DNA of 64,000 nucleotides from a virus (IMGVR_UViG_3300027752_001458:45676-109675); one strand, 5' to 3'. Positions 29,225-40,551 are shown, numbered from the stretch's first letter. Notes: generated by a model not told the origin, from the letters alone. Numbers and translations: made by a program.

Positions 29225-32200
29225 ATGGCCACAGCAATTCAATGGAGACGAGGTAACACTTCTCAAACCGCTAGTTTTACAGGTTTGGTCGGTGAGATTA
29301 CAGTCGATACAGACTTATCTACCGTTATTGTCCACGACGGCTCAACAAGCGGCGGACATAGGTTAGCGAAATTCTCAGAGCTTTCAGCATTTGGTGATGG
29401 AGATATTACAAGCGTAGTAGCAGGTACAGGTTTATCTGGTGGTACTACTAGCGGTGACGCTACAATTAATATCGACAACTCAGTTGTTGCAACTTTGACA
29501 GACTCGCAAACTTTAACAAATAAAACATTAACTAGTCCAGTTTTAAACACTGGGATAAGCGGTAGTGCATTAATCGATGATGATTCGATGGGTACAGCTA
29601 CAGCAACAACAATTTCAAGTTCGGAATCAATTAAAGCATACGTTGACGCAGTCGAAACAGATGACGTAGCAGAAGGTTCAACAAACGTATATTTCAGCAC
29701 AGCAAGAGCAAGAGCTTCTGTTAGTGGTGGAACAGGTATTACATATACGCAAGGCACAGGTGTTATTGCATTAACAGATGAAGATTTCATCTCAGGTGTA
29801 ACAGCAGGATCAGGTATAACAGGCGGCGGAGCCACTGGTAACATTACTGTTGCTTTAGACTATGAAAACATGGCAGGCAACTTAATACCAACAGCAAACG
29901 TAACATACGATTTGGGTTCTACAACAATGATGTGGAAAGACATTTATGTTGGTCCAGGTTCTTTATATGTTAACGGACAGAAAGTATTAGAAGATGACGC
30001 AGGTACAATTACAATTAGTGCAGATGCAGATCAGAACGTTGCAGTTAAGACATCCGGTTCAGGTGATGTTGAATTAAACGCATCAGGTACTGGCGTAATT
30101 AACGCACAATCGAGCATGTTGTTTGATGCTTCTAAAACACTAGGCGGCACAGGCGGATTACAGTTATCAAGTAACATCAATGCAAGTAGTAACTACATTA
30201 ATAACGTAGGTGCTCCAGCAGTTGCCGGCGATGCTACAAACAAAACGTATGTAGACGGCACATCTTATCTTACTGGCGGTGACGGTATTGATAACGATTC
30301 AAGCACACTTAACCTTGATGCTACTGTTGTAAGAACAGCAGGCGCTCAAACTATTGGTGGTGCAAAGACATTTAGTAGCGATGTTATATTTAACGGTGAC
30401 TTTACTGTTAACGGTACAACATCAACAGTTAATACTGAAACAATTTACTTAGAAGATAACATTATTACTTTGAACTACGGTACTTCCGGCGCTCCAACAG
30501 AGAACGCAGGTCTTACAGTTGACAGAGGTAGTAGTGCAGATGTAAACATTCAGTGGAACGAAACAAGTGATCAGTGGGAAATTACTACAGACGGTAGTGC
30601 GTACACTAAGATTGCACAATCAACTACAGACTTAACTGAAGGAACTAACTTATACTATACAACAGGACGTTGGGATACCAAATTAGCTTCTGCAGATACA
30701 GACGATTTAAGCGAAGGTTCAACTAACCTTTATCACACAACGGCAAGAGCAAGAGCGGCAATTAGTGTTTCTGGTGACTTAGGTTACAACAGCACAACTG
30801 GTGTTATTAGCTTCACAAATGACGCAGGTGATATTGAAAGTGTTGTAGCTGGAGCTGGTATGATTGGTGGCGGAACGTCAGGTGATGTTACACTTAACGT
30901 TGCAGGCGGATTTGGTATTACTGCAAATGCAGACGATATCCAAATTGCTAACTCAGATGTTAGAGCATTGTTTACAGCATCAGGCGATATCAGCTATAAT
31001 AACAGCACAGGTGTTTTTAGCTTCACAAATGACGCAGGTGACATTGAAAGTGTTACAGCAGGAAATGGTTTAACAGGCGGCGGTGCAACCGGCGCTATCA
31101 CTATAGCATTAGACGACTCTCATGTAAAAGGACTTGTTAGTGCTGGCGGAGACTTATCATACAATAGCTCAACAGGTGCTTTCAGTTTTAGTCATCCTAC
31201 TATGTACAATGATGCAGACGCAACTGACGCGGCAAGAGCGGCAGTATCAGCAGGTGGCGATATAGCATACAATAGTTCAACTGGTGTAATTAGTTACACA
31301 ACACCAACAGAGCGAACTGATGCAGAAGTCAGAGGCTTAATTAGTGCAGGTGGTGACTTGGCATACAACAGCACAACTGGTGTTATTAGCTTCACAAATG
31401 ACGCAGGTGATATTGAAAGTGTTGTAGCAGGTACATTGTTAGACGGTGGCGGCACAAGTGGTGCAGTTACACTAAACGTTGACCTTTCAGAACTAACAGA
31501 TATGACAGATGCAGTTGTTGGTACAGCAGATGAGATGGTACTACTAGACAGTGGTGTACAGAAGCGTAAACTTATTAGCGAAATCACACTAAGTGACTTC
31601 AGTAATGACTTAGGCAACTACGGTGGTTATACAAGTAACGTAGGTGACATCACAGGTGTTACAGCAGGAACTGGTTTAACAGGCGGCGGCGCAAGCGGCA
31701 GTGTTACAGTATCATTAAGCCACTTAGGTTTAGAGAACTTAACAGATCCAAACGATGATAGAATTGTGTTCTGGGACGACAGTGCAAGTGCTTTATCCTA
31801 CCTAGATGCTGGTACAGGTATTAGTATTAGTGGTGCTACAATGTCAGTGAACATGGGTGCATTTGATACAGCCGATCTAACTGAAGGCACTAACCAGTAC
31901 CACACTAGTGCAAGAGTTAACTCACTGATTGATACTAGAGTTACTAATGCTTTTGTAGACGCATTGAATGTAGATGCAGATACATTAGACGGAATTAGTA
32001 GTGCAAGTTTCATGAGAAGCGATGCAACTGATTCACATAGTGGAACATTTACTCCAAGTACAGATAACTCAATTGACTTAGGTTCAAGTTCTTTACGATA
32101 TAATGAAGTATACGCAGTAACTTTCCAAGGAACAGCAAGTTCGGCGCAGTTTGCGGATTTGGCTGAGAAATACGAAAGTGATGCAGAACTAGATGCTGGT

Positions 32201-32515
32201 ACAGTTGTTATGTTTGGCGGTGAAAAAGAAATTACTGCATGTGATAGTGAAAACTGTCATGCAGTTGCAGGTGTTATTAGTACAGATCCAGCATACATGA
32301 TGAATGCAGGCGGCGAAGGTCAATATGTAGCATTAACAGGAAGAGTACCTACTAAGGTTACTGGACCAGTTGCTAAAGGTGACTTGATGGTTTCCGCAGG
32401 AAACGGTATGGCTAAATCAAATAACGAAGCACAAGCAGGAAGAATAATTGGTAAAGCAGTTGAATCTTCTGAAGGTGGCGAAGCAGTTATTGAAGTATTA
32501 GTTAACATGATGTAA
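29225..32515 (+). CDS. Second virion fibre protein, Mtd_N-like N-terminus
   Basis: Start MATAIQWRRG (AGGA RBS); GEITVDT...HDGSTSGG; C-terminus paralogous to 22802-28600. Confidence 0.8.
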   Translation: MATAIQWRRGNTSQTASFTGLVGEITVDTDLSTVIVHDGSTSGGHRLAKFSELSAFGDGDITSVVAGTGLSGGTTSGDATINIDNSVVATLTDSQTLTNKTLTSPVLNTGISGSALIDDDSMGTATATTISSSESIKAYVDAVETDDVAEGSTNVYFSTARARASVSGGTGITYTQGTGVIALTDEDFISGVTAGSGITGGGATGNITVALDYENMAGNLIPTANVTYDLGSTTMMWKDIYVGPGSLYVNGQKVLEDDAGTITISADADQNVAVKTSGSGDVELNASGTGVINAQSSMLFDASKTLGGTGGLQLSSNINASSNYINNVGAPAVAGDATNKTYVDGTSYLTGGDGIDNDSSTLNLDATVVRTAGAQTIGGAKTFSSDVIFNGDFTVNGTTSTVNTETIYLEDNIITLNYGTSGAPTENAGLTVDRGSSADVNIQWNETSDQWEITTDGSAYTKIAQSTTDLTEGTNLYYTTGRWDTKLASADTDDLSEGSTNLYHTTARARAAISVSGDLGYNSTTGVISFTNDAGDIESVVAGAGMIGGGTSGDVTLNVAGGFGITANADDIQIANSDVRALFTASGDISYNNSTGVFSFTNDAGDIESVTAGNGLTGGGATGAITIALDDSHVKGLVSAGGDLSYNSSTGAFSFSHPTMYNDADATDAARAAVSAGGDIAYNSSTGVISYTTPTERTDAEVRGLISAGGDLAYNSTTGVISFTNDAGDIESVVAGTLLDGGGTSGAVTLNVDLSELTDMTDAVVGTADEMVLLDSGVQKRKLISEITLSDFSNDLGNYGGYTSNVGDITGVTAGTGLTGGGASGSVTVSLSHLGLENLTDPNDDRIVFWDDSASALSYLDAGTGISISGATMSVNMGAFDTADLTEGTNQYHTSARVNSLIDTRVTNAFVDALNVDADTLDGISSASFMRSDATDSHSGTFTPSTDNSIDLGSSSLRYNEVYAVTFQGTASSAQFADLAEKYESDAELDAGTVVMFGGEKEITACDSENCHAVAGVISTDPAYMMNAGGEGQYVALTGRVPTKVTGPVAKGDLMVSAGNGMAKSNNEAQAGRIIGKAVESSEGGEAVIEVLVNMM
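30785..31428 (+). repeat. 65-bp exact direct repeat within fibre 2
   Basis: 30785-30849 identical to 31364-31428; a third partial copy near 31000-31060. Confidence 0.85.
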
Positions 32516-32778: not shown

Positions 32779-33030
32779 ATTATTCTCCTAAAATGTGATG
32801 TTACACACATGCACACATGTTTGGGGTAACCTCACCTCGAATGAGGAATGTTACAACTAATCAAACGCTATGTTACAGTTGTGTTACAACAGGTATTTAT
32901 GCAACTGGTAATTTTTTGTGCTTAAACACGGCAGAGTTTAAATAATTAGACTAGCTAAACGATAAATACATTTACATAACACATATCACACACTTAGATA
33001 ATAATAAAATAATAAAATCAGGTGAAGTGA

Positions 33031-33327
33031 ATGGAAGACATTTTTAAACTTATAGGCGAAGTTGGGTTGCCCATAGCAGGCTCCCTAACGATGGGCTTTT
33101 TTATATTCCTCATAATTAAACAAATGCTTGCCGGCATTGTCGGTCAAATTGAAACACTCACTATGTTCTGCAAAAGCCTAGAAGGCCGAGCAAGAACAAT
33201 GAGCAATGAGATGATAAAAATCGACTTGCTTGTTAGTAGTGCATTGAATTTAAGACCAGACATTGAACGTATAGCAAGAGCCGAAAACTTTGTTGAAGAC
33301 GGCAAATTAGATGTGAGGCGAGACTAA
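33031..33327 (+). CDS. Small single-TM membrane protein (holin-like)
   Basis: IGEVGLPIA then a TM helix and coiled tail. Confidence 0.65.
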   Translation: MEDIFKLIGEVGLPIAGSLTMGFFIFLIIKQMLAGIVGQIETLTMFCKSLEGRARTMSNEMIKIDLLVSSALNLRPDIERIARAENFVEDGKLDVRRD

Positions 33328-33626
33328 TGGATATGGCTCAACTGATATCCGACCACGGCTACCCAGTAGTAGCAACAGTGGGATTGGGATATTTTATTTT
33401 TTATGTATGGCGCTTTATAGGTTCAGAAATTAAACCTGCATTAGGCAACATGCATATGGCGTTAATAAGAGTTATTGATCAGACGAGGATGCTTGATCAA
33501 GACATGATTCGATTACAACAAAAAGTAAACGTTGTAATAGAGTACAGACAGAGACAAGAAGTTCTAGAAGATGCAGAAGAAAAGACTGCACTTAGAGAAC
33601 AAAAACAACAGGAAGTTAAAAAATGA
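33327..33626 (+). CDS. Small single-TM membrane protein, paralog of the previous gene
   Basis: ISDHGYPVV then TM; RMLDQDMIRL resembles RTMSNEMIKI. Confidence 0.65.
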   Translation: MDMAQLISDHGYPVVATVGLGYFIFYVWRFIGSEIKPALGNMHMALIRVIDQTRMLDQDMIRLQQKVNVVIEYRQRQEVLEDAEEKTALREQKQQEVKK

Positions 33627-34120
33627 GTAAGTTTTTATTAATAGCGGTTGGCTATTTTGTAATTGCTCTTGCACCAAGTGTACAAGCAGACCAACTAACA
33701 CATAAATTTAAGTCTCCGAGTTTCAGCGGCATTGGAACTGGAGCACATTACCTTACGATTGAGAATCAAGAGAAAAGTCGTAGGGACAAAATTGCAGACA
33801 ACATTGAATCGGCACTTAAAGCGGCAGAGCGAGCAGACTCAAACAGCACAATTAACAAATTCATTAGAAATTTAGAGAGTAGAATATACGCTCAAATCTC
33901 TAAAGGATTAGTTGACAGCATGTTTTGTGATCCGGCTACTGTAGTAGAGTGTACAGGTTCAGACTCAGGTGATTTTACAATTGAAGGTAATAATGTAAGT
34001 TACCAAATAGTTATAAGTGACGATGGATTAGAAGTAATGAGACTTACTATTGTTTCTCCAGATGGCACAATAACACAGATAGAAATACCGATTGGCATCG
34101 GCAGTATCGGCGGCGGATAG
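33623..34120 (+). CDS. csgF: Curli assembly component CsgF
   Basis: Signal peptide then QLTHKFKSPSFSG; immediately upstream of csgG. Confidence 0.8.
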   Translation: MSKFLLIAVGYFVIALAPSVQADQLTHKFKSPSFSGIGTGAHYLTIENQEKSRRDKIADNIESALKAAERADSNSTINKFIRNLESRIYAQISKGLVDSMFCDPATVVECTGSDSGDFTIEGNNVSYQIVISDDGLEVMRLTIVSPDGTITQIEIPIGIGSIGGG

Positions 34121-35121
34121 TGAAAGATTTTTATAAACTTTTTGCCGTAGTGGCATTATTGCTAACTACTGGGTGTGCCAGTATTGCTATACCAGGTGAC
34201 AAGCAGTGCCAGGCTGATTTTTTAGAATGCATTGAAGAACCACAACAAGTAGAACTCCCAACTTATAGAAAGTTACGTTACCTACCTCCTGCGGAAACAA
34301 TGCCAGTAGTAGCAGTTTACCAATTCGCAGACTTAACAGGACAACGTTTAAGTTCGGACGGAGCGGCAAGTTTTAGCACAGCCGTAACACAAGGTGCAAA
34401 GGATTTACTAATTGACGCTCTTAAGGCGGCAGGCGCTGGAAAAGACCCTAAGGGTACTTGGTTCCGTGTCGTTGAAAGAGGATTAGGATTAGATAATTTA
34501 GTGCGGGAAAGGCAGATTATTCGAAGTACAAGAGAATCATATGCCAAAGATAGCGACCCCGCACAGCAAGTACAGCCATTATTATTTGCTGGGATGATAT
34601 TAGAAGGAGGAGTTGTAGGTTATGACTCGAATATCGAAACAGGTGGCTCAGGTGCAAGATATCTTGGTATAGGGACAACAAACCAATACCGAAGAGATAG
34701 TGTAGTGGTATCATTGAGAGCAGTAAGTACACTTACAGGCGAAGTGATATTGAACGTACAGACATACAAGACCATTCTAAGTGTAGGGCAAGCCGGCGAT
34801 GTGTTCAAGTTCCTTGACATGGACACTAAATTGCTTGAAATAGAAAGTGGTTTGACAGAAAATGAGAGTGTAACATGGGGTGTTCGTTCAGCGATTGAAG
34901 CCTCTGTTTTAGCTCTTGTTGAACAAGGTGACGAGAGAGGATTTTGGAAAATAGTTTACCCAGAAAATTGGGACCAACTAGTGGCTGAGCAAGAACAGGC
35001 ATATTGGACGAGGGAGTCTATTAAGTTACTTAAAGACCCTATTAGTAACGAAACGAAATCTAAACTCAACAAGAACGATGATTCTATTGTAAAGAAAATT
35101 TTTTACAAAAAGGAATCTTAA
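34120..35121 (+). CDS. csgG: Curli secretion channel CsgG
   Basis: Lipobox TTGC; VAVYQFADLTGQ, FSTAVTQGA, WFRVVER, ERQIIR, EGGVVGYDSN. Confidence 0.93.
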   Translation: MKDFYKLFAVVALLLTTGCASIAIPGDKQCQADFLECIEEPQQVELPTYRKLRYLPPAETMPVVAVYQFADLTGQRLSSDGAASFSTAVTQGAKDLLIDALKAAGAGKDPKGTWFRVVERGLGLDNLVRERQIIRSTRESYAKDSDPAQQVQPLLFAGMILEGGVVGYDSNIETGGSGARYLGIGTTNQYRRDSVVVSLRAVSTLTGEVILNVQTYKTILSVGQAGDVFKFLDMDTKLLEIESGLTENESVTWGVRSAIEASVLALVEQGDERGFWKIVYPENWDQLVAEQEQAYWTRESIKLLKDPISNETKSKLNKNDDSIVKKIFYKKES

Positions 35122-35143
35122 TTAACCATATATGGAGTAAGTT

Positions 35144-35944
35144 ATGAAGACAAATAAATTTTTTAAGAATACATTATTAACCGTCTTCGCTATAACAGGG
35201 ATATTATCAATTGACCTTGCGTCAGCGGATAATGAAGTTTTAATAGATCAAGTTGGTGACAACTTAACCTTAACAGTTTTACAAGCAGGCTACGGTAACA
35301 GTTTATCTGGAGATACAAGTCAGGGTACTGATTTAACTCTCACAGGCGGTAGTTTAATTGTAGATCTAATCCAAGACGGTAATTTAAACGAGATCTTCGG
35401 ATCTTGGGTACTCGATGGATCAGGGTCAAGTGTATTAGATTTTTACTTTCAGGGTAACAGCAATATCTGGGATATGAATATTGGTGCTACAGGCAGTAGT
35501 GATTATACTGATATTTTATCAAACATTACTGGCGACAGTAACCTTTTTGATATTGATATTGGTGGTAACAACACAGCTGAAAGTTCAAATATGGATCTAG
35601 TAGTACTCGGATCAAGAAACGATTTCTCAACTAGTTTTACTAATAGTAAAGTTTGGGCCGCAGGCTCTGGCAACAATTCTACTGGTACACAGACTATGTC
35701 AGGAATTTTAATTGATTCAAGTTACAACACTTGGAACTTTGATATCACAGGATCAGACAATGCGTTTGCCACAAAGCAACAAGGCAATGACGCACATCTA
35801 TTAACTGTGGAATTAGACGGTAGCGATGGTGATTTCCAATTTATACAAGATATGACAACCACATGCTCACCTGCTTGTAACGGTGTCATTAATTTAAATA
35901 TAAATAGTGAAAATGCGTCAGTTAGTGTTAAGCAGACAGACTAG
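35144..35944 (+). CDS. Curlin-like repeat protein (CsgA/CsgB-like)
   Basis: Signal peptide; recurring QxGxxN / GxxN beta-solenoid repeats. Confidence 0.7.
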   Translation: MKTNKFFKNTLLTVFAITGILSIDLASADNEVLIDQVGDNLTLTVLQAGYGNSLSGDTSQGTDLTLTGGSLIVDLIQDGNLNEIFGSWVLDGSGSSVLDFYFQGNSNIWDMNIGATGSSDYTDILSNITGDSNLFDIDIGGNNTAESSNMDLVVLGSRNDFSTSFTNSKVWAAGSGNNSTGTQTMSGILIDSSYNTWNFDITGSDNAFATKQQGNDAHLLTVELDGSDGDFQFIQDMTTTCSPACNGVINLNINSENASVSVKQTD

Positions 35945-37088
35945 TACATTAGCATTTATGCTTTTGTTTGCGTTTAATGTGCAAGCCTCCGTCGGCTCAA
36001 TCGGCGGAGTGCTTGAACAATCTGGAAGTGTAGCACAAATACAACGAAATAAAGAAAACATACGAGCAGTTTTAAACGAAGAGATTGCTAGTATGGATGA
36101 AGTAGAAACAAAGAACGGACGATTGAAAATTAAATTTGTCGATGATACACTAGTGAGTTTAACAGAACACACTTACATGGTCATCGACGAATATGTGTAC
36201 GACCCGAACCCAAGTAAAAGCAAAATGGCATTAAATTTTGTGTCAGGTACAGCAAGATTTGCCACAGGCGGCTTAGGTTTAGTACCCAGAGAGAACATTA
36301 CAATACAAACTCCTACAGCAAGTATAGGCATAAGGGGAACAGATTTTACTACCACAGTCGATGAACTGGGTAGAAGCCTAGTAATACTATTACCAGACGA
36401 TAATTGTACTGATAAGGTATCACTAGAAGAAGGTTGTGCACCTAGTGGGAGTATAACAGTCACTAATGCAGGCGGAACTCAAGTGCTCACAGAAGCATAC
36501 CAGGCAGTAATGGTAAGCACTTTTGAGACTATACCGACCACTCCGGTTACACTTGTTAATTTAGATTTAAATATGATTGACAATATGTTCATTGTAAGCG
36601 AACCTGTAGAAATTAAAGAGGCAGTTGAGGAACAACAAAGCGAGTTAAAAGGTAGCGCCGGACTTCTAACTTTTAACGGGCTAGACCAGGACTTGCTAGA
36701 TATAGAAGGACTGGAATCTAATACGGCAGATAATTATGAATTTACAGAATTAGATATAGATTTTTTAGATGTTGAATTCTTAAATGATTTATTAGACATC
36801 CTAGAGGATAATATAGATTCGCTAGGCGAAGAACTTAACAATCAAGGTGACGGCACCGACAAACTAATAGGCACACGCTTTGGTAACGATCCAGGTACGC
36901 AGTTTAATACGTTTGCAGATTACGATGGTAAAGTATTCTTTTTAAGACAAGTATCAAACAAAATTGGAATTAAATTAGAAAAAGGTAGTCAAGCAAGAAT
37001 TGAATTGTTTGACTCAGATGTAGGAGAAAACTTAATATGCCTAAACAGTTGTGACGGCATATACATTAGTATTACACAAAATGATTAA
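35907..37088 (+). CDS. FecR-domain periplasmic protein
   Basis: Signal peptide; DEVETKNGR, IQTPTASIGIRGTDF; acidic C-terminal half. Confidence 0.85.
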   Translation: MKMRQLVLSRQTSTLAFMLLFAFNVQASVGSIGGVLEQSGSVAQIQRNKENIRAVLNEEIASMDEVETKNGRLKIKFVDDTLVSLTEHTYMVIDEYVYDPNPSKSKMALNFVSGTARFATGGLGLVPRENITIQTPTASIGIRGTDFTTTVDELGRSLVILLPDDNCTDKVSLEEGCAPSGSITVTNAGGTQVLTEAYQAVMVSTFETIPTTPVTLVNLDLNMIDNMFIVSEPVEIKEAVEEQQSELKGSAGLLTFNGLDQDLLDIEGLESNTADNYEFTELDIDFLDVEFLNDLLDILEDNIDSLGEELNNQGDGTDKLIGTRFGNDPGTQFNTFADYDGKVFFLRQVSNKIGIKLEKGSQARIELFDSDVGENLICLNSCDGIYISITQND

Positions 37089-37953
37089 AATATTACAGAC
37101 AATTATATTAGTAGCAGGACTTGTATTTGCAGAACAAGTAGCAAGTGCTGACAACGAAGTGCTTATAGACCAGACTGGCGACAACGTTGTTATTGGTATC
37201 TTACAGGAAGGATACAATAACAGTATTGATGTAGATTTAGGATTAGCTACTTTTGATACTTCCAACACATTTGAAGTAAAACAGGAAGGCCATAATAACG
37301 AAGTTTTCCTTAGTGTAGGTGGAACTGACAATACGTTGGTGCTGATACAAGAAGGCAACAACAATGATATCAGTTGGACAGATTCTTGGGGCAGTGGTAA
37401 AGCATGGGGCGGAGACTTAGACGGCAATTATAATAACATACACATTCAGCAAAAATGTAGTTTTACAACATGTAATCCAAACGAGGCTCAATTTCATATA
37501 TGGGGCAACAGTAACACCGTTCTATTTGGGCAAGGCTATTATCTAACAGGCCCTAGCGATACAACATTTGATTATGATAACTGGGAACCAGGTGGCAACT
37601 TTCTCCGGTTAGACATTCACGGCAGTAGTAATAGTTTTAAAGGTGGTCAAAAAATGGATAGCACTAGTACTAATCATAATATGACTGTAGACATACATGG
37701 TAACAGCAACAATGTATTTGCACAGCAATGGGCCAATGGTAACAAGACACTTACTTTAAACGTTGACAGCAACAGCAATTCTGTTGCCATTGAACAAAAC
37801 AATAGCGGTAATCACACCGCAACAGTAACACTTGATGGTTCGTACCCTACAAGTTTGAACTTGCTACAAACAGGATCAGGTAATCAGTCATACACACTAT
37901 TCCAAAACTGCCAAACAGTTGGCGGATGTAGTGTGTCTATAACACAGGACTAA
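37081..37953 (+). CDS. Second curlin-like repeat protein
   Basis: Signal peptide; QEGYNN, QEGHNN, QEGNNN repeats; shares ASADNEVLIDQxGDN with 35144-35944. Confidence 0.72.
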   Translation: MIKILQTIILVAGLVFAEQVASADNEVLIDQTGDNVVIGILQEGYNNSIDVDLGLATFDTSNTFEVKQEGHNNEVFLSVGGTDNTLVLIQEGNNNDISWTDSWGSGKAWGGDLDGNYNNIHIQQKCSFTTCNPNEAQFHIWGNSNTVLFGQGYYLTGPSDTTFDYDNWEPGGNFLRLDIHGSSNSFKGGQKMDSTSTNHNMTVDIHGNSNNVFAQQWANGNKTLTLNVDSNSNSVAIEQNNSGNHTATVTLDGSYPTSLNLLQTGSGNQSYTLFQNCQTVGGCSVSITQD

Positions 37954-38053
37954 AACGCAAGTGAATCACGTATTTCATTGATCTGCGCCAACAAATTTGC
38001 ATAAATAAACTTTGTAAAAGGGTTAACCTTTTCGACAACCTAAGGAGAACGCT

Positions 38054-38341
38054 ATGAATAGATTACTATCTATTACAGCAGTCCTCGGTTTTGTTGTTTT
38101 TCTTCCGTCATGTGCGTCAGTTGGCGCAGTAATTGAAGGTGGGAAAGAGTTTACTACAGGCGTAGTAGATGGATCCGTTAATGCAGTTTCTACAATAGCA
38201 GGAGCAGTATTAACAGATGTATCTAGTATCACAAGCACAGCGGCACAAGCCGCTACAGGTGTAATTGACACCGTTGCGACTGAAGTAGATAAACAAACCG
38301 ATGCATTGCAAGAACCAAAAGCAAAGCCAGAGGGAAAGTAG
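38054..38341 (+). CDS. Small lipoprotein ending in a GGGAAAG slippery site
   Basis: AAGGAG RBS; lipobox LPSC; Ala/Thr/Val amphipathic repeats. Confidence 0.75.
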   Translation: MNRLLSITAVLGFVVFLPSCASVGAVIEGGKEFTTGVVDGSVNAVSTIAGAVLTDVSSITSTAAQAATGVIDTVATEVDKQTDALQEPKAKPEGK

Positions 38342-38451
38342 TAACTTCATCAGCCAGGAAGGTAGATGAAGAAATTGCTGAACAAGACATTAAAGTTATA
38401 GTACGCAGTATTATGATGTATTGTTCTAAAAATCCCAAGGAATGCGAATAA
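38338..38451 (+). CDS. -1 frame extension of the lipoprotein (37 aa)
   Basis: VVTSSARKVDEEIAEQDIKVIVRSIMMYCSKNPKECE*; fills the gap to the terminator; no upstream start codon in this frame. Confidence 0.6.
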   Translation, partial: VVTSSARKVDEEIAEQDIKVIVRSIMMYCSKNPKECE

Positions 38452-38452
38452 C

Positions 38453-38480
38453 AAAAGCACACTACGGTGTGCTTTTTTTT
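38453..38480 (+). terminator. Rho-independent terminator
   Basis: AAAAGCACAC-TACG-GTGTGCTTTTTTTT. Confidence 0.88.
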
Positions 38481-38493
38481 GATAAATATATTA

Positions 38494-40551
38494 ATGAAAT
38501 GGTTACTAAGCGGCTGGACCGTAGCAATATCTATATTACTATTAACGACTTTACGAGTTGCCGACCCTACACCATTACAGAGTTTGCGTAGTCAAACATT
38601 CGATGCATTACAGCAATTAGATGTTAAAAAAGAAAGCAACGAAGTTGTTATAATTAACATTGGCGAAAAAAGTTTACAACAATGGGGGCAATGGGCATGG
38701 CCAAGACAGAACATAGCACAGTTGATATCAGATTTGCGGAGCAAGAACGCTGGAATAATTGGTTTAACGATTATGTTTCCGGAAACAGACCGATTTGGCG
38801 GGGACGCAGTTTTGTCAAGTTGGATGTCGGAGAACGGGGTAGTTTTATCCCAGACCCCATCTGGCAGAGGAATAAAGAGTACAGGTCCTCATATTGGTAC
38901 AGCAACGATAGGCCCAGTATCCGCTACGGACTACTTGCTGACATGGCCGAATCTCGTAACGAATATTGATATATTAGAGAAGTCAGCCGCAGGCATTGGC
39001 GTAGTAGCAAGCGAGCCACAAGCAGACAATCAGACGAGAACATATCCACTAGCAGTCGCTGTTGAAGGAAACATATATCCTAGTTTTGCTATTGAAATGC
39101 TTAGGGTGTATACAGGCAAACCTAGTTATATTCTAAAGACATCCGAGATCGGCATTAAAGAATTTGCAGTACCTCCGTTTGATCCTATTGTGACATCCGG
39201 AAGAGGTTCTGCATACATAAGATTTAATAACATATTTGAAGAACACGAGTATGTTCAAGCGAGTGAACTGCCTGACTTAGGCGGAAAGTTCGTAATAGTG
39301 GGAGTAAGTGCTGAGGGTGTTGCTAATCCGGTTCCCACTCCGGTAGGCAACATATATCCACAGTACATACAAGCTCATATGCTACAGAACTTTATTGATG
39401 GTAGTAACATTACCAGGAGTGAACTAAGTGCTGTGTACGAGCTTCTGTGTGCGTTGTTGAGCATGATCCTAGTGGCTCTTGCGATATATAAGTTACCCAT
39501 ATGGGCAGGACTGTTTACTACAGTAAGTATTGTAGGAGCAATTGCCTATTCTACTGTACACTTTTATACTGCAAACTTATATTTGTTCGATGCAACCTTC
39601 CCTGCAATAGCAACATTCTTAATTTTTACACAGGCAAGTTTTAATAACTTCTGGGTACAGTTTAAATTGAGACAAGAAATACAGAAACAATTTGCTGGAT
39701 ATGCCTCACCTACCGTTGTTAGAATGTTACAAGATAACCCGGACTTAATTAAACAAGGCATGAAGAAAGAAGTTAGTATATGCTTTTCAGACTTACGTGG
39801 CTTTACTCCACTAGGTGAGAGCTTTGGCGATGATGTACAGGGCTTAACAAAAATGATGAACGAGTATATGGATGCTATTACACAACCTATACTTGATGCA
39901 GACGGCATGGTGATTAAATATATCGGCGATGCAAGTATGCACATACACAATGCTCCTATGGACGACCCAGATCATCCTAAGAGTGCGGTGCAAACAGGAT
40001 TACAAATGCTTAGGGCAGTGGAGAAGTTTAATGATAAAATTGTTAAAGAGGGCAGACCACCCATTGGTATGGGTGCTGGTATTAATACTGGGCTCGGTTA
40101 TATTGGGGAAATGGGCTCCACTGCAAGACACTCATATGACATACTCGGAGACGCAGTTAGTACTGCCGCGAGAATAGAAAGCAAGTGTAAAGAGTATGGG
40201 TGCTTATTACTTGTAGGTGGAGACACATACAAGCATACTAAGAGTGATTTCTTTTATCTAAAAGTAGATGACTTGCAAGTAAAAGGTAAAAGTGTTGGAA
40301 TAGAAATATACACTGTACTGGATATTAAGCGAACTAAGTATGTTAAAGGTAAGCAACTACACGCACAGATGCATAAACATTATCGTAACCAAGACTTTAA
40401 TAAAGCAATTAAATTGTGTAATCAACTGTCTAAAACCTTTGATGGTAAGATGAAAGATTATTATGCTATGTGGATTGAACGTTGTGAATTTCAACTAACA
40501 CAAGACTTACCTAAAGATTGGAACGGGATATTTATTGCCACAGGCAAGTAG
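38494..40551 (+). CDS. CHASE2-domain class III adenylate cyclase
   Basis: GQWAWPR CHASE2 motif, three TMs, FSDLRGFT, IKYIGDA, GINTG, LGDAVSTAARIE; start MKWLL at 38494. Confidence 0.92.
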   Translation: MKWLLSGWTVAISILLLTTLRVADPTPLQSLRSQTFDALQQLDVKKESNEVVIINIGEKSLQQWGQWAWPRQNIAQLISDLRSKNAGIIGLTIMFPETDRFGGDAVLSSWMSENGVVLSQTPSGRGIKSTGPHIGTATIGPVSATDYLLTWPNLVTNIDILEKSAAGIGVVASEPQADNQTRTYPLAVAVEGNIYPSFAIEMLRVYTGKPSYILKTSEIGIKEFAVPPFDPIVTSGRGSAYIRFNNIFEEHEYVQASELPDLGGKFVIVGVSAEGVANPVPTPVGNIYPQYIQAHMLQNFIDGSNITRSELSAVYELLCALLSMILVALAIYKLPIWAGLFTTVSIVGAIAYSTVHFYTANLYLFDATFPAIATFLIFTQASFNNFWVQFKLRQEIQKQFAGYASPTVVRMLQDNPDLIKQGMKKEVSICFSDLRGFTPLGESFGDDVQGLTKMMNEYMDAITQPILDADGMVIKYIGDASMHIHNAPMDDPDHPKSAVQTGLQMLRAVEKFNDKIVKEGRPPIGMGAGINTGLGYIGEMGSTARHSYDILGDAVSTAARIESKCKEYGCLLLVGGDTYKHTKSDFFYLKVDDLQVKGKSVGIEIYTVLDIKRTKYVKGKQLHAQMHKHYRNQDFNKAIKLCNQLSKTFDGKMKDYYAMWIERCEFQLTQDLPKDWNGIFIATGK

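Follow-up and report, generated by a model that had tools for sequence, protein, structure and literature searches.

The closest described counterparts of the locus analysed here are curli genes carried by marine phages. A 'curli operon' was described by Zaragoza-Solas 2020 (PMC7029224), a pore that times lysis was proposed by Buchholz 2022 (PMC9004378), and the gene block "HK (1-2), CsgF, CsgG, CsgA/B, FecR, CsgA/B, AC" was reported from podo- and myo-pelagiphages by Wittmers 2022 (PMC9599517), together with phylogenies, global distribution and metatranscriptome hits. These papers assign iron regulation to FecR, kinase function to the small proteins and control of curli to the cyclase; CHASE2 is mentioned in none of the three, and a literature search yielded no paper joining CHASE2, curli and phage. 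For the present study a viral DNA stretch of 64,000 nucleotides (IMGVR_UViG_3300027752_001458:45676-109675; hereafter the window) was analysed, in which the open reading frames (ORFs) at positions 33031-40551 almost certainly constitute a known type of viral type VIII secretion system (T8SS, curli) module.

The comparisons show a predicted late-type operon in which a CsgG/CsgF channel and two CsgA-like subunits are encoded together with a FecR gene between the subunit genes, a CHASE2 cyclase gene after them, and a pair of small transmembrane (TM) proteins that always goes along. The gene block itself has already been published; it is reasonable to regard as new the reading of FecR and CHASE2 as a sensor on the curli machine. 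According to this reading, which is plausible and favoured by the comparative data and to which we assign a probability of about one half, FecR and CHASE2 would act as an outside-in sensor attached to the secretion apparatus. SAR11 and OM43 count among the ocean's most abundant cells, and their phages equip them with a secretion system that they otherwise lack.

Relation to published modules and gene linkage

All nine ORFs listed in a preliminary description of the window were recovered on the + strand. From tm1 through curlin 2 successive genes overlap or abut, and fecR is placed between the two curlin genes, overlapping each of them, as that description had stated; a 100-nt gap and the lipoprotein gene follow. 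The features are:

32962-32968, + strand: ATAAATA late-promoter-like box, 63 nt before tm1
33031-33327, + strand: tm1, 98 aa, single-pass membrane protein with an N-terminal TM helix and a helical C-terminal part (phrog_18771, 4.7e-24)
33327-33626, + strand: tm2, 99 aa, paralog of tm1 (phrog_18771, 8.7e-24)
33623-34120, + strand: CsgF homolog with signal peptide (Pfam CsgF, 1.5e-9, profile positions 7-119; phrog_35372, 2.4e-39)
34120-35121, + strand: CsgG, outer-membrane lipoprotein channel extended by ~55 aa at the C-terminus (Pfam, 2.4e-43)
35144-35944, + strand: curlin 1, 266 aa, beta-solenoid-like, with signal peptide, Cys pair and VxVxQ tail (Curlin_rpt, 0.027)
35907-37088, + strand: FecR-fold protein, 393 aa, predicted to be secreted (Pfam FecR, 6e-10), overlapping both curlin genes
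37051-37953, + strand: curlin 2, 300 aa, probable start at ATG 37081 (Curlin_rpt, 2.6e-4; NCBIfam CsgB, 4.5e-7)
38001-38007, + strand: ATAAATA box before the lipoprotein gene, kept in 22/23 relatives
38054-38341, + strand: lipoprotein, 95 aa, LPSC lipobox, rich in Ala/Gly/Thr/Val, with its own promoter box and terminator
38453-38476, + strand: intrinsic-terminator-like hairpin and T run after the lipoprotein gene
38482-38488, + strand: ATAAATA box, 6 nt before the cyclase ATG
38494-40551, + strand: CHASE2 class III nucleotidyl cyclase, predicted in the inner membrane (CHASE2, 6.8e-39; Guanylate_cyc, 1e-17)

The arrangement is that of the Wittmers-type module, with adjacent csgF and csgG, curlins after csgG with FecR between them, the cyclase downstream and the small proteins upstream. 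The same block in the same order is found in phage Melnitz (OM43 host) and phage HTVC008M (SAR11 host), in which GenBank already labels the FecR and cyclase genes (Melnitz) or the cyclase gene (HTVC008M), and the order is shared by HTVC023P-type podophages. Unlike these published modules, the window has an extra lipoprotein unit before the cyclase; its catalytic domain is of the type seen in Melnitz (D/S type, see below) and not of that in HTVC008M, and neither the histidine kinase label given to the TM pair nor the iron regulator label given to FecR was reproduced here. The preliminary description had credited the literature with csgF and csgG in marine myophages; these were indeed reported, but the credit was too narrow, as the whole block with FecR and cyclase was published in 2022 (PMC9599517).

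Linkage of the genes was evaluated in scans covering the best 80 relatives each, near-duplicates included, so that the counts describe linkage within the phage group and are not a census. FecR, the TM pair and CsgF were present in all 46 CsgG-seeded loci with enough flanking sequence and the cyclase in 44 of them; the 37 such loci seeded with the TM pair all held csgG and fecR (cyclase: 36), as did the 33 seeded with the cyclase (TM pair: 31). The genes remain together even where protein identity falls to 30-45% or the order is rearranged. That the phage curli locus is linked, both physically and in its evolution, to a FecR-fold protein and a CHASE2 cyclase, as had been proposed before these scans, is therefore borne out: both genes do co-occur with the curli genes.

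Curli components and the membrane-protein pair

The adjacent CsgF and CsgG genes are recognised by Pfam and PHROG profiles. CsgG matches the structures of E. coli CsgG with an E-value of 1e-44, the lipobox, F56 of the constriction loop and the TM hairpin being conserved; it differs from the E. coli protein in that the loop retains F56 without Y51 and N55. The identity of the CsgG/CsgF channel is given at the sequence level. The curlin calls in Pfam were marginal (curlin 1 and curlin 2, E-values as listed above), and the match of curlin 2 to NCBIfam CsgB lies under the curated cut-off. The AlphaFold model of curlin 2 (predicted TM-score 0.76) is a regular strand-turn-strand solenoid; in a comparison with 48,161 solved chains it came closest to Pontibacter CsgA 8c50 (Z 21.0, 241 aligned residues, 26% identity; next match 16.6). 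This match came only from the full VIA search, while Foldseek with the same model returned nothing significant. Curlin 1 and curlin 2 are homologous to each other (hhalign 99.7%, E 8e-27). The weak Pfam calls are thus backed by the CsgB match, the 8c50 model match and the homology of the two curlins.

Canonical curli (csgBAC-csgDEFG of E. coli and Salmonella) share with the phage module the CsgG channel, CsgF and CsgA-like beta-solenoid subunits. Unlike canonical curli, the phage module has subunits of 266 and 300 aa with Cys pairs, lacks a CsgE or CsgC match and has additional signalling genes embedded in the operon. In the preliminary description no csgC, csgD or csgE was recognisable; CsgE and CsgC indeed gave no match in the 109,675-bp record from which the window is taken, which is a fragment, and CsgD was not directly searched for there. 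Complete relatives are also reported to be without CsgE, CsgC and CsgD (PMC7029224; PMC9599517).

The paralogs tm1 and tm2, both members of phrog_18771 (~1e-24), each carry one N-terminal hydrophobic helix, and tm2 always adjoins tm1. The latter belongs to the most strongly conserved module proteins (70-95% identity over 80 tm1-seeded viral loci; 42-94% over a wider set) and was found among GenBank phages in HTVC008M and Melnitz only. In 17 of the 33 cyclase-seeded loci the pair is located just behind the cyclase and not before csgF. A profile search with the pair returned 948 clusters of small proteins, and neither protein had a Pfam or NCBIfam match at E<=0.1. The label histidine kinase (PMC9599517) is not supported, given the lengths of 98 and 99 aa, the lack of a Pfam or NCBIfam match and the absence of HATPase_c from the 109,675-bp record; ExbB/TolQ or ExbD, an automatic Atlas cluster name, reached an hhalign probability of <1%; and YvrJ-like, with an Atlas score of 0.87 only, is a lead and not evidence.

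The designation 'holin-like pair' used earlier also proved unsupported, as the two proteins match no holin or other named family and no endolysin gene is adjacent. This bears on the published speculation (PMC9004378) that the module is a lysis-timing device, in which CsgG/CsgF would form a gated pore like a pinholin or secretin while the TM pair and the cyclase modulate the timing of the envelope breach. Late-type promoter boxes, the position of the module among structural genes and the holin-like size and single TM helix of tm1 and tm2 agree with such a device. We nevertheless consider it highly improbable, because CsgG resides in the outer membrane and holins act in the inner membrane, because two intact CsgA-like substrates are conserved that a bare pore would not need, and because of the missing similarity to holins.

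One contig of a metagenome-assembled genome (MAG) labelled Rickettsiales (L104:5210-15365), with phage-like composition, encodes a 1317-aa FecR-domain protein, a TolC-like OEP, HlyD-like genes, a CHASE2 cyclase and tm1/tm2, without CsgG or CsgF. From this gene set it follows that the TM pair goes with the cyclase and that another secretion system can replace the T8SS.

FecR and CHASE2 as a candidate envelope sensor

The FecR-fold protein comprises a signal peptide, a FecR domain (residues 33-230), an acidic disordered linker (~250-315) and a small beta domain (320-393) ending in IxIxQ. In its AlphaFold2 model the confident N-domain matches the cell-surface signalling domain of PupR (6ovm, Z 15.2), and the C-domain is seven-stranded with a predicted local distance difference test score of ~90; fold matches to the C-domain were weak (FHA-like, Z ~4). 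The domain fold is what the protein has in common with the periplasmic part of FecR/PupR anti-sigma factors of the FecIRA type. Unlike these, it has no cytoplasmic anti-sigma domain and no TM helix, the FecR domain following the signal peptide directly; no extracytoplasmic function (ECF) sigma factor (Sigma70_r4_2) was found in the 109,675-bp record, and there is no TonB-dependent transducer among the module genes, a family that was not searched for in the record. The phage protein therefore shares a domain with the iron-citrate regulator and is not one.

Only residues ~1-235 of FecR are conserved in bacteria, the linker and C-domain being specific to the module. A C-terminal tail of the form [IVLFY]x[IVLFY]xQ is present in 46/49 FecR, 34/43 curlin 2 and 25/42 curlin 1 orthologs; for any other protein of the module the count is 0-1 orthologs, and among the frames of the window it is 5/127. 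An alphaproteobacterial MAG contig (L100:9036-11847) carries a curlin-like/FecR/curlin-like trio with viral-type C-terminal tails, and also has flanking genes of bacterial type and transposase remnants; neither csgG nor a cyclase gene lies beside the trio, and CsgG and three CHASE2 genes are located on other contigs of the same genome.

The cyclase consists of a TM segment, a periplasmic CHASE2 domain (24-334), a hydrophobic membrane-spanning segment, a catalytic domain (432-615) and a C-terminal extension of ~70 aa, and matches cyclases in the PDB down to 2.9e-21. Its identity is 51% to Melnitz and 32% to HTVC008M. Two catalytic signatures occur in phage CHASE2 cyclases. The first, D-K-D-D-S-R together with the ~70-aa extension (window, Melnitz), has Asp at the base-specifying position and Ser in place of the transition-state Asn and was found in 28 viral loci; the second, D-K-D-(S/T)-N-R, is that of HTVC008M, 36 viral loci in all and the 19 bacterial homologs without exception. 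Catalytic domains of the D/S type are 81-94% identical between modules that otherwise share only 35-50% protein identity, which suggests that this domain spread recently, presumably by recombination at the TM/linker boundary. The identity of CHASE2 tracks that of FecR-N and CsgG, and the catalytic domain is mosaic between lineages: Melnitz, L058 and L068-L072 are 30-36% identical to the window in CHASE2 and 81-86% in the catalytic domain (Melnitz 36% and 82%), and L012-L020 are 62-74% identical in CHASE2 and 32-41% in the catalytic domain (L012 74% and 41%). Judged by these identities the sensor half is part of the module, whereas the output half can be exchanged.

FecR/CHASE2 pairs of bacteria were examined by a FecR profile scan of GTDB genomes, which yielded 17 viral-type contigs and 62 bacterial loci, mostly alphaproteobacterial. 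Full-length CHASE2 cyclases, 24-31% identical over their full length, lie within a few kb of FecR at 22 of the 62 bacterial loci, and none of the 62 contains csgG, csgF or the TM pair. At ~40 bacterial loci a TPR/DUF2860 gene is immediately upstream of FecR; no such gene was detected in viral loci by tblastn with two bacterial members. Among annotated RefSeq strains, Paracoccus aminophilus has the order TPR-FecR-cyclase, in Ensifer TPR-FecR is linked to an NHLP peptide exporter and lies opposite a CHASE2 cyclase, and Ruegeria has FecR-cyclase. Published FecR/CHASE2 clusters fit this pairing (PMC9239204, PMC5192318), and CHASE2 cyclases of S. meliloti sense through an outer-membrane protein (PMC13001267). 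The bacterial FecR and CHASE2 pairing that the preliminary description had named is hence confirmed by the GTDB loci, the annotated strains and these three papers.

The phage pair resembles the bacterial sensors (CyaD1/CyaD2/CyaK of S. meliloti with NsrA, a putative FecR-domain protein, the cyclic AMP (cAMP) cluster of Campylobacterota, and LysM-FecR with a CHASE2 kinase in Burkholderia) in having a gene for a periplasmic FecR-fold protein beside that of a CHASE2 receptor, which sits in the membrane and has its output in the cytoplasm. It differs from them in that the TPR/DUF2860 gene is absent and curli genes stand in its position, in that the phage FecR has a module-specific linker, C-domain and curlin-like tail, and in that a Clr/CRP-type receptor was not found in the phage by a PF00027 search; a phosphodiesterase is also listed as absent.

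Taken together, FecR and the CHASE2 cyclase may represent a two-part envelope sensor of bacterial origin that is normally accompanied by a TPR/DUF2860 partner, the place of which would be taken in the phage module by the curli apparatus. The phage FecR would have gained the acidic flexible linker and the C-domain with a tail like that of the curlins, and could report the assembly state of CsgG/CsgF/curlin (secretion, fibre growth, load) to the periplasmic CHASE2 domain, which in turn would set cytoplasmic cyclic-nucleotide synthesis, information thus flowing outside-in. The nucleotide receptor, of which the phage encodes no canonical form, would probably be a host protein. Wiring of FecR/CHASE2 to the curli part is suggested by the location of fecR between the curlin genes, the module-specific C-domain, the common tail, the tracking of FecR-N and CsgG by CHASE2 and the L100 trio. 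A further elaboration, which we put forward tentatively and regard as rather unlikely in its full form, is that a curlin fibre on the CsgG/CsgF pore is tethered through the acidic FecR linker to the cyclase, so that surface events (fibre load, cell-cell contact, other phages) would be converted into a cyclic-nucleotide signal acting on host proteins or the TM pair and tuning late infection, with an exchangeable output domain and possibly different nucleotides; the phage would thereby assemble in the infected cell a trans-envelope sensor missing from its host. The proposals of contact sensing, superinfection sensing and lysis timing made in the preliminary description found no support.

Several observations weigh against the sensor reading. 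Melnitz-infected cells showed no amyloid fibres and no clumping under the authors' conditions (PMC9004378). Activity and product of the window cyclase are uncertain because Ser replaces the transition-state Asn. A cyclic-nucleotide-binding domain (PF00027, the only receptor type searched) was found neither in the record nor in the complete genomes of Melnitz and HTVC008M nor in a 340-kb, 91%-complete relative. The possibility that the FecR C-domain is a curlin repeat domain was rejected (hhalign probability 5-6%), the terminal motif alone being in common. Finally, a terminator precedes the cyclase gene of the window, which is predicted to be transcribed as a unit of its own, and in some relatives the cyclase gene is preceded by insertions several kb long.

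The last of these points would be expected if the locus held two independent functions in a hypervariable island, namely a FecR/CHASE2 sensor manipulating host cyclic nucleotides, and curli used for adhesion, aggregation ('sibling capture') or superinfection exclusion. Bacterial FecR-CHASE2 pairs do work without curli, and L104 links FecR, cyclase and TM pair with TolC/HlyD genes and not with CsgG/F. Such independence nevertheless appears unlikely in view of the interleaving of fecR with the overlapping curlin genes, the near-complete co-occurrence across very divergent and rearranged modules, the tail motif common to FecR and the curlins, and the fact that curli genes occur precisely where the TPR/DUF2860 partner is absent.

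The direction of signalling that we propose for the sensor is opposite to the published inside-out reading (Wittmers 2022; PMC9599517), in which the cyclase, FecR and the small 'kinase' proteins would switch on curli production or secretion, e.g., via cAMP or iron. Co-inheritance of the genes is compatible with that reading, and cAMP-CRP affects csgD in Gammaproteobacteria (as cited in PMC9599517). It is distinctly unlikely for this module, given late-type promoter boxes across the operon, no recognisable cAMP-responsive regulator with a PF00027 domain, a FecR protein without the parts of an anti-sigma factor or an ECF sigma factor in the record, and small proteins without a kinase domain or HATPase_c in the record; moreover, CHASE2 is a periplasmic input domain, and hence an outside-in direction is built in.

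Recognising FecR/CHASE2 as a bacterial envelope-sensor pair whose third partner is exchanged for curli would provide a concrete and testable wiring diagram, and two annotations that are spreading in databases are corrected, i.e., 'histidine kinase' for the TM pair and 'iron regulator' for FecR.

A number of side observations were made at the bacterial loci. The 17 viral-type contigs, on which the viral-type module is full or truncated, were assigned to MAGs from unrelated phyla, those of L084-L099 being labelled Synechococcus, Planctomycetaceae, Sphingobacteriales, Luteolibacter, Polynucleobacter and others; these modules are likely phage contigs mis-binned in GTDB representatives. On plasmid pAMI5 of Paracoccus aminophilus (L171) a gene for a cyclic-nucleotide-binding patatin-like phospholipase is divergent from the TPR-FecR-CHASE2 cyclase operon, and this protein is a possible effector type for such cyclases. 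Two Pelagibacteraceae single-cell genomes (L162:5954-16256 and L154) contain a CHASE2-SpoIIE(PP2C)/DUF2860/FecR operon flanked by prepilin peptidase and PilY1 genes, and a cyclic-nucleotide-binding acyltransferase elsewhere; this lineage of hosts is thus equipped with a FecR/CHASE2 sensor of its own next to type IV pilus genes.

Transcription units, lipoprotein gene and surroundings

ATAAATA boxes start at 32962, 38001 and 38482, i.e., before tm1, the lipoprotein gene and the cyclase gene, where the preliminary description had placed late-type boxes. With 25 copies in the window against 22 expected, the motif shows no enrichment and by itself proves nothing. Its positions are conserved in relatives: a box is located <=150 nt upstream of tm1 in 41 of 56 distinct upstream regions (background 5%), before the lipoprotein gene in the proportion listed above, and exactly at -13 of the cyclase ATG in >20 relatives (about half), Melnitz included. 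Boxes are rare elsewhere in the module, with <=1 of ~55-60 regions each for tm2, csgG, curlin 1 and fecR, 9/60 for csgF and 7/49 for curlin 2. From this conservation three late-type units are likely, consisting of tm1 to curlin 2, the lipoprotein gene, and the cyclase gene. The full T4 late box TATAAATA was uninformative (3 in the window versus 6.5 expected), its copy immediately upstream of fecR, at 35899, lacks conservation (1/60), and a sigma-70 promoter scan gave results at chance level.

The cyclase most likely starts at ATG 38494 and not at the listed GTG 38467, because the latter lies inside the terminator hairpin (38453-38476). The box 6 nt before this ATG leaves no room for a ribosome-binding site, and the spacing is conserved in the >20 relatives; the cyclase may be translated from a late mRNA that lacks a leader or is initiated in an unusual way. 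In three studies RNA libraries yielded contigs spanning the locus and its flanks, in agreement with the metatranscriptome hits of PMC9599517; DNA carry-over is possible in these libraries, and the contigs give neither strand nor level.

The lipoprotein had been viewed as a fixed link of the signalling chain, which does not hold, as its gene has its own promoter box and terminator and occurs in only 22 of the 46 CsgG-seeded loci (7 of 37 tm1-seeded). It is absent from Melnitz and HTVC008M, its look-alikes in the Atlas are viral only, and the gene is an accessory insert.

The record behind the window is an IMG/VR contig of 109,675 bp with a completeness rating of 28%, and the GC content of the window is ~39%. 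A megablast search of GenBank phages with the locus found no near-identical record. The closest relatives of the module are on very long viral contigs (L031/G005, 339,794 bp, 91% complete; L017, 250,519 bp), and the phage, which is marine and T4-like, probably comes from a lineage of jumbo size unlike Melnitz and HTVC008M (141-147 kb). NUDIX and tail-sheath-like genes flank the locus downstream and a tail-fibre-like gene flanks it upstream. Over the latter (1118 aa; 31000-32300), RNA-library contigs displayed 'goes back' and 'skips' joints, which are consistent with internal repeats or strain variants.

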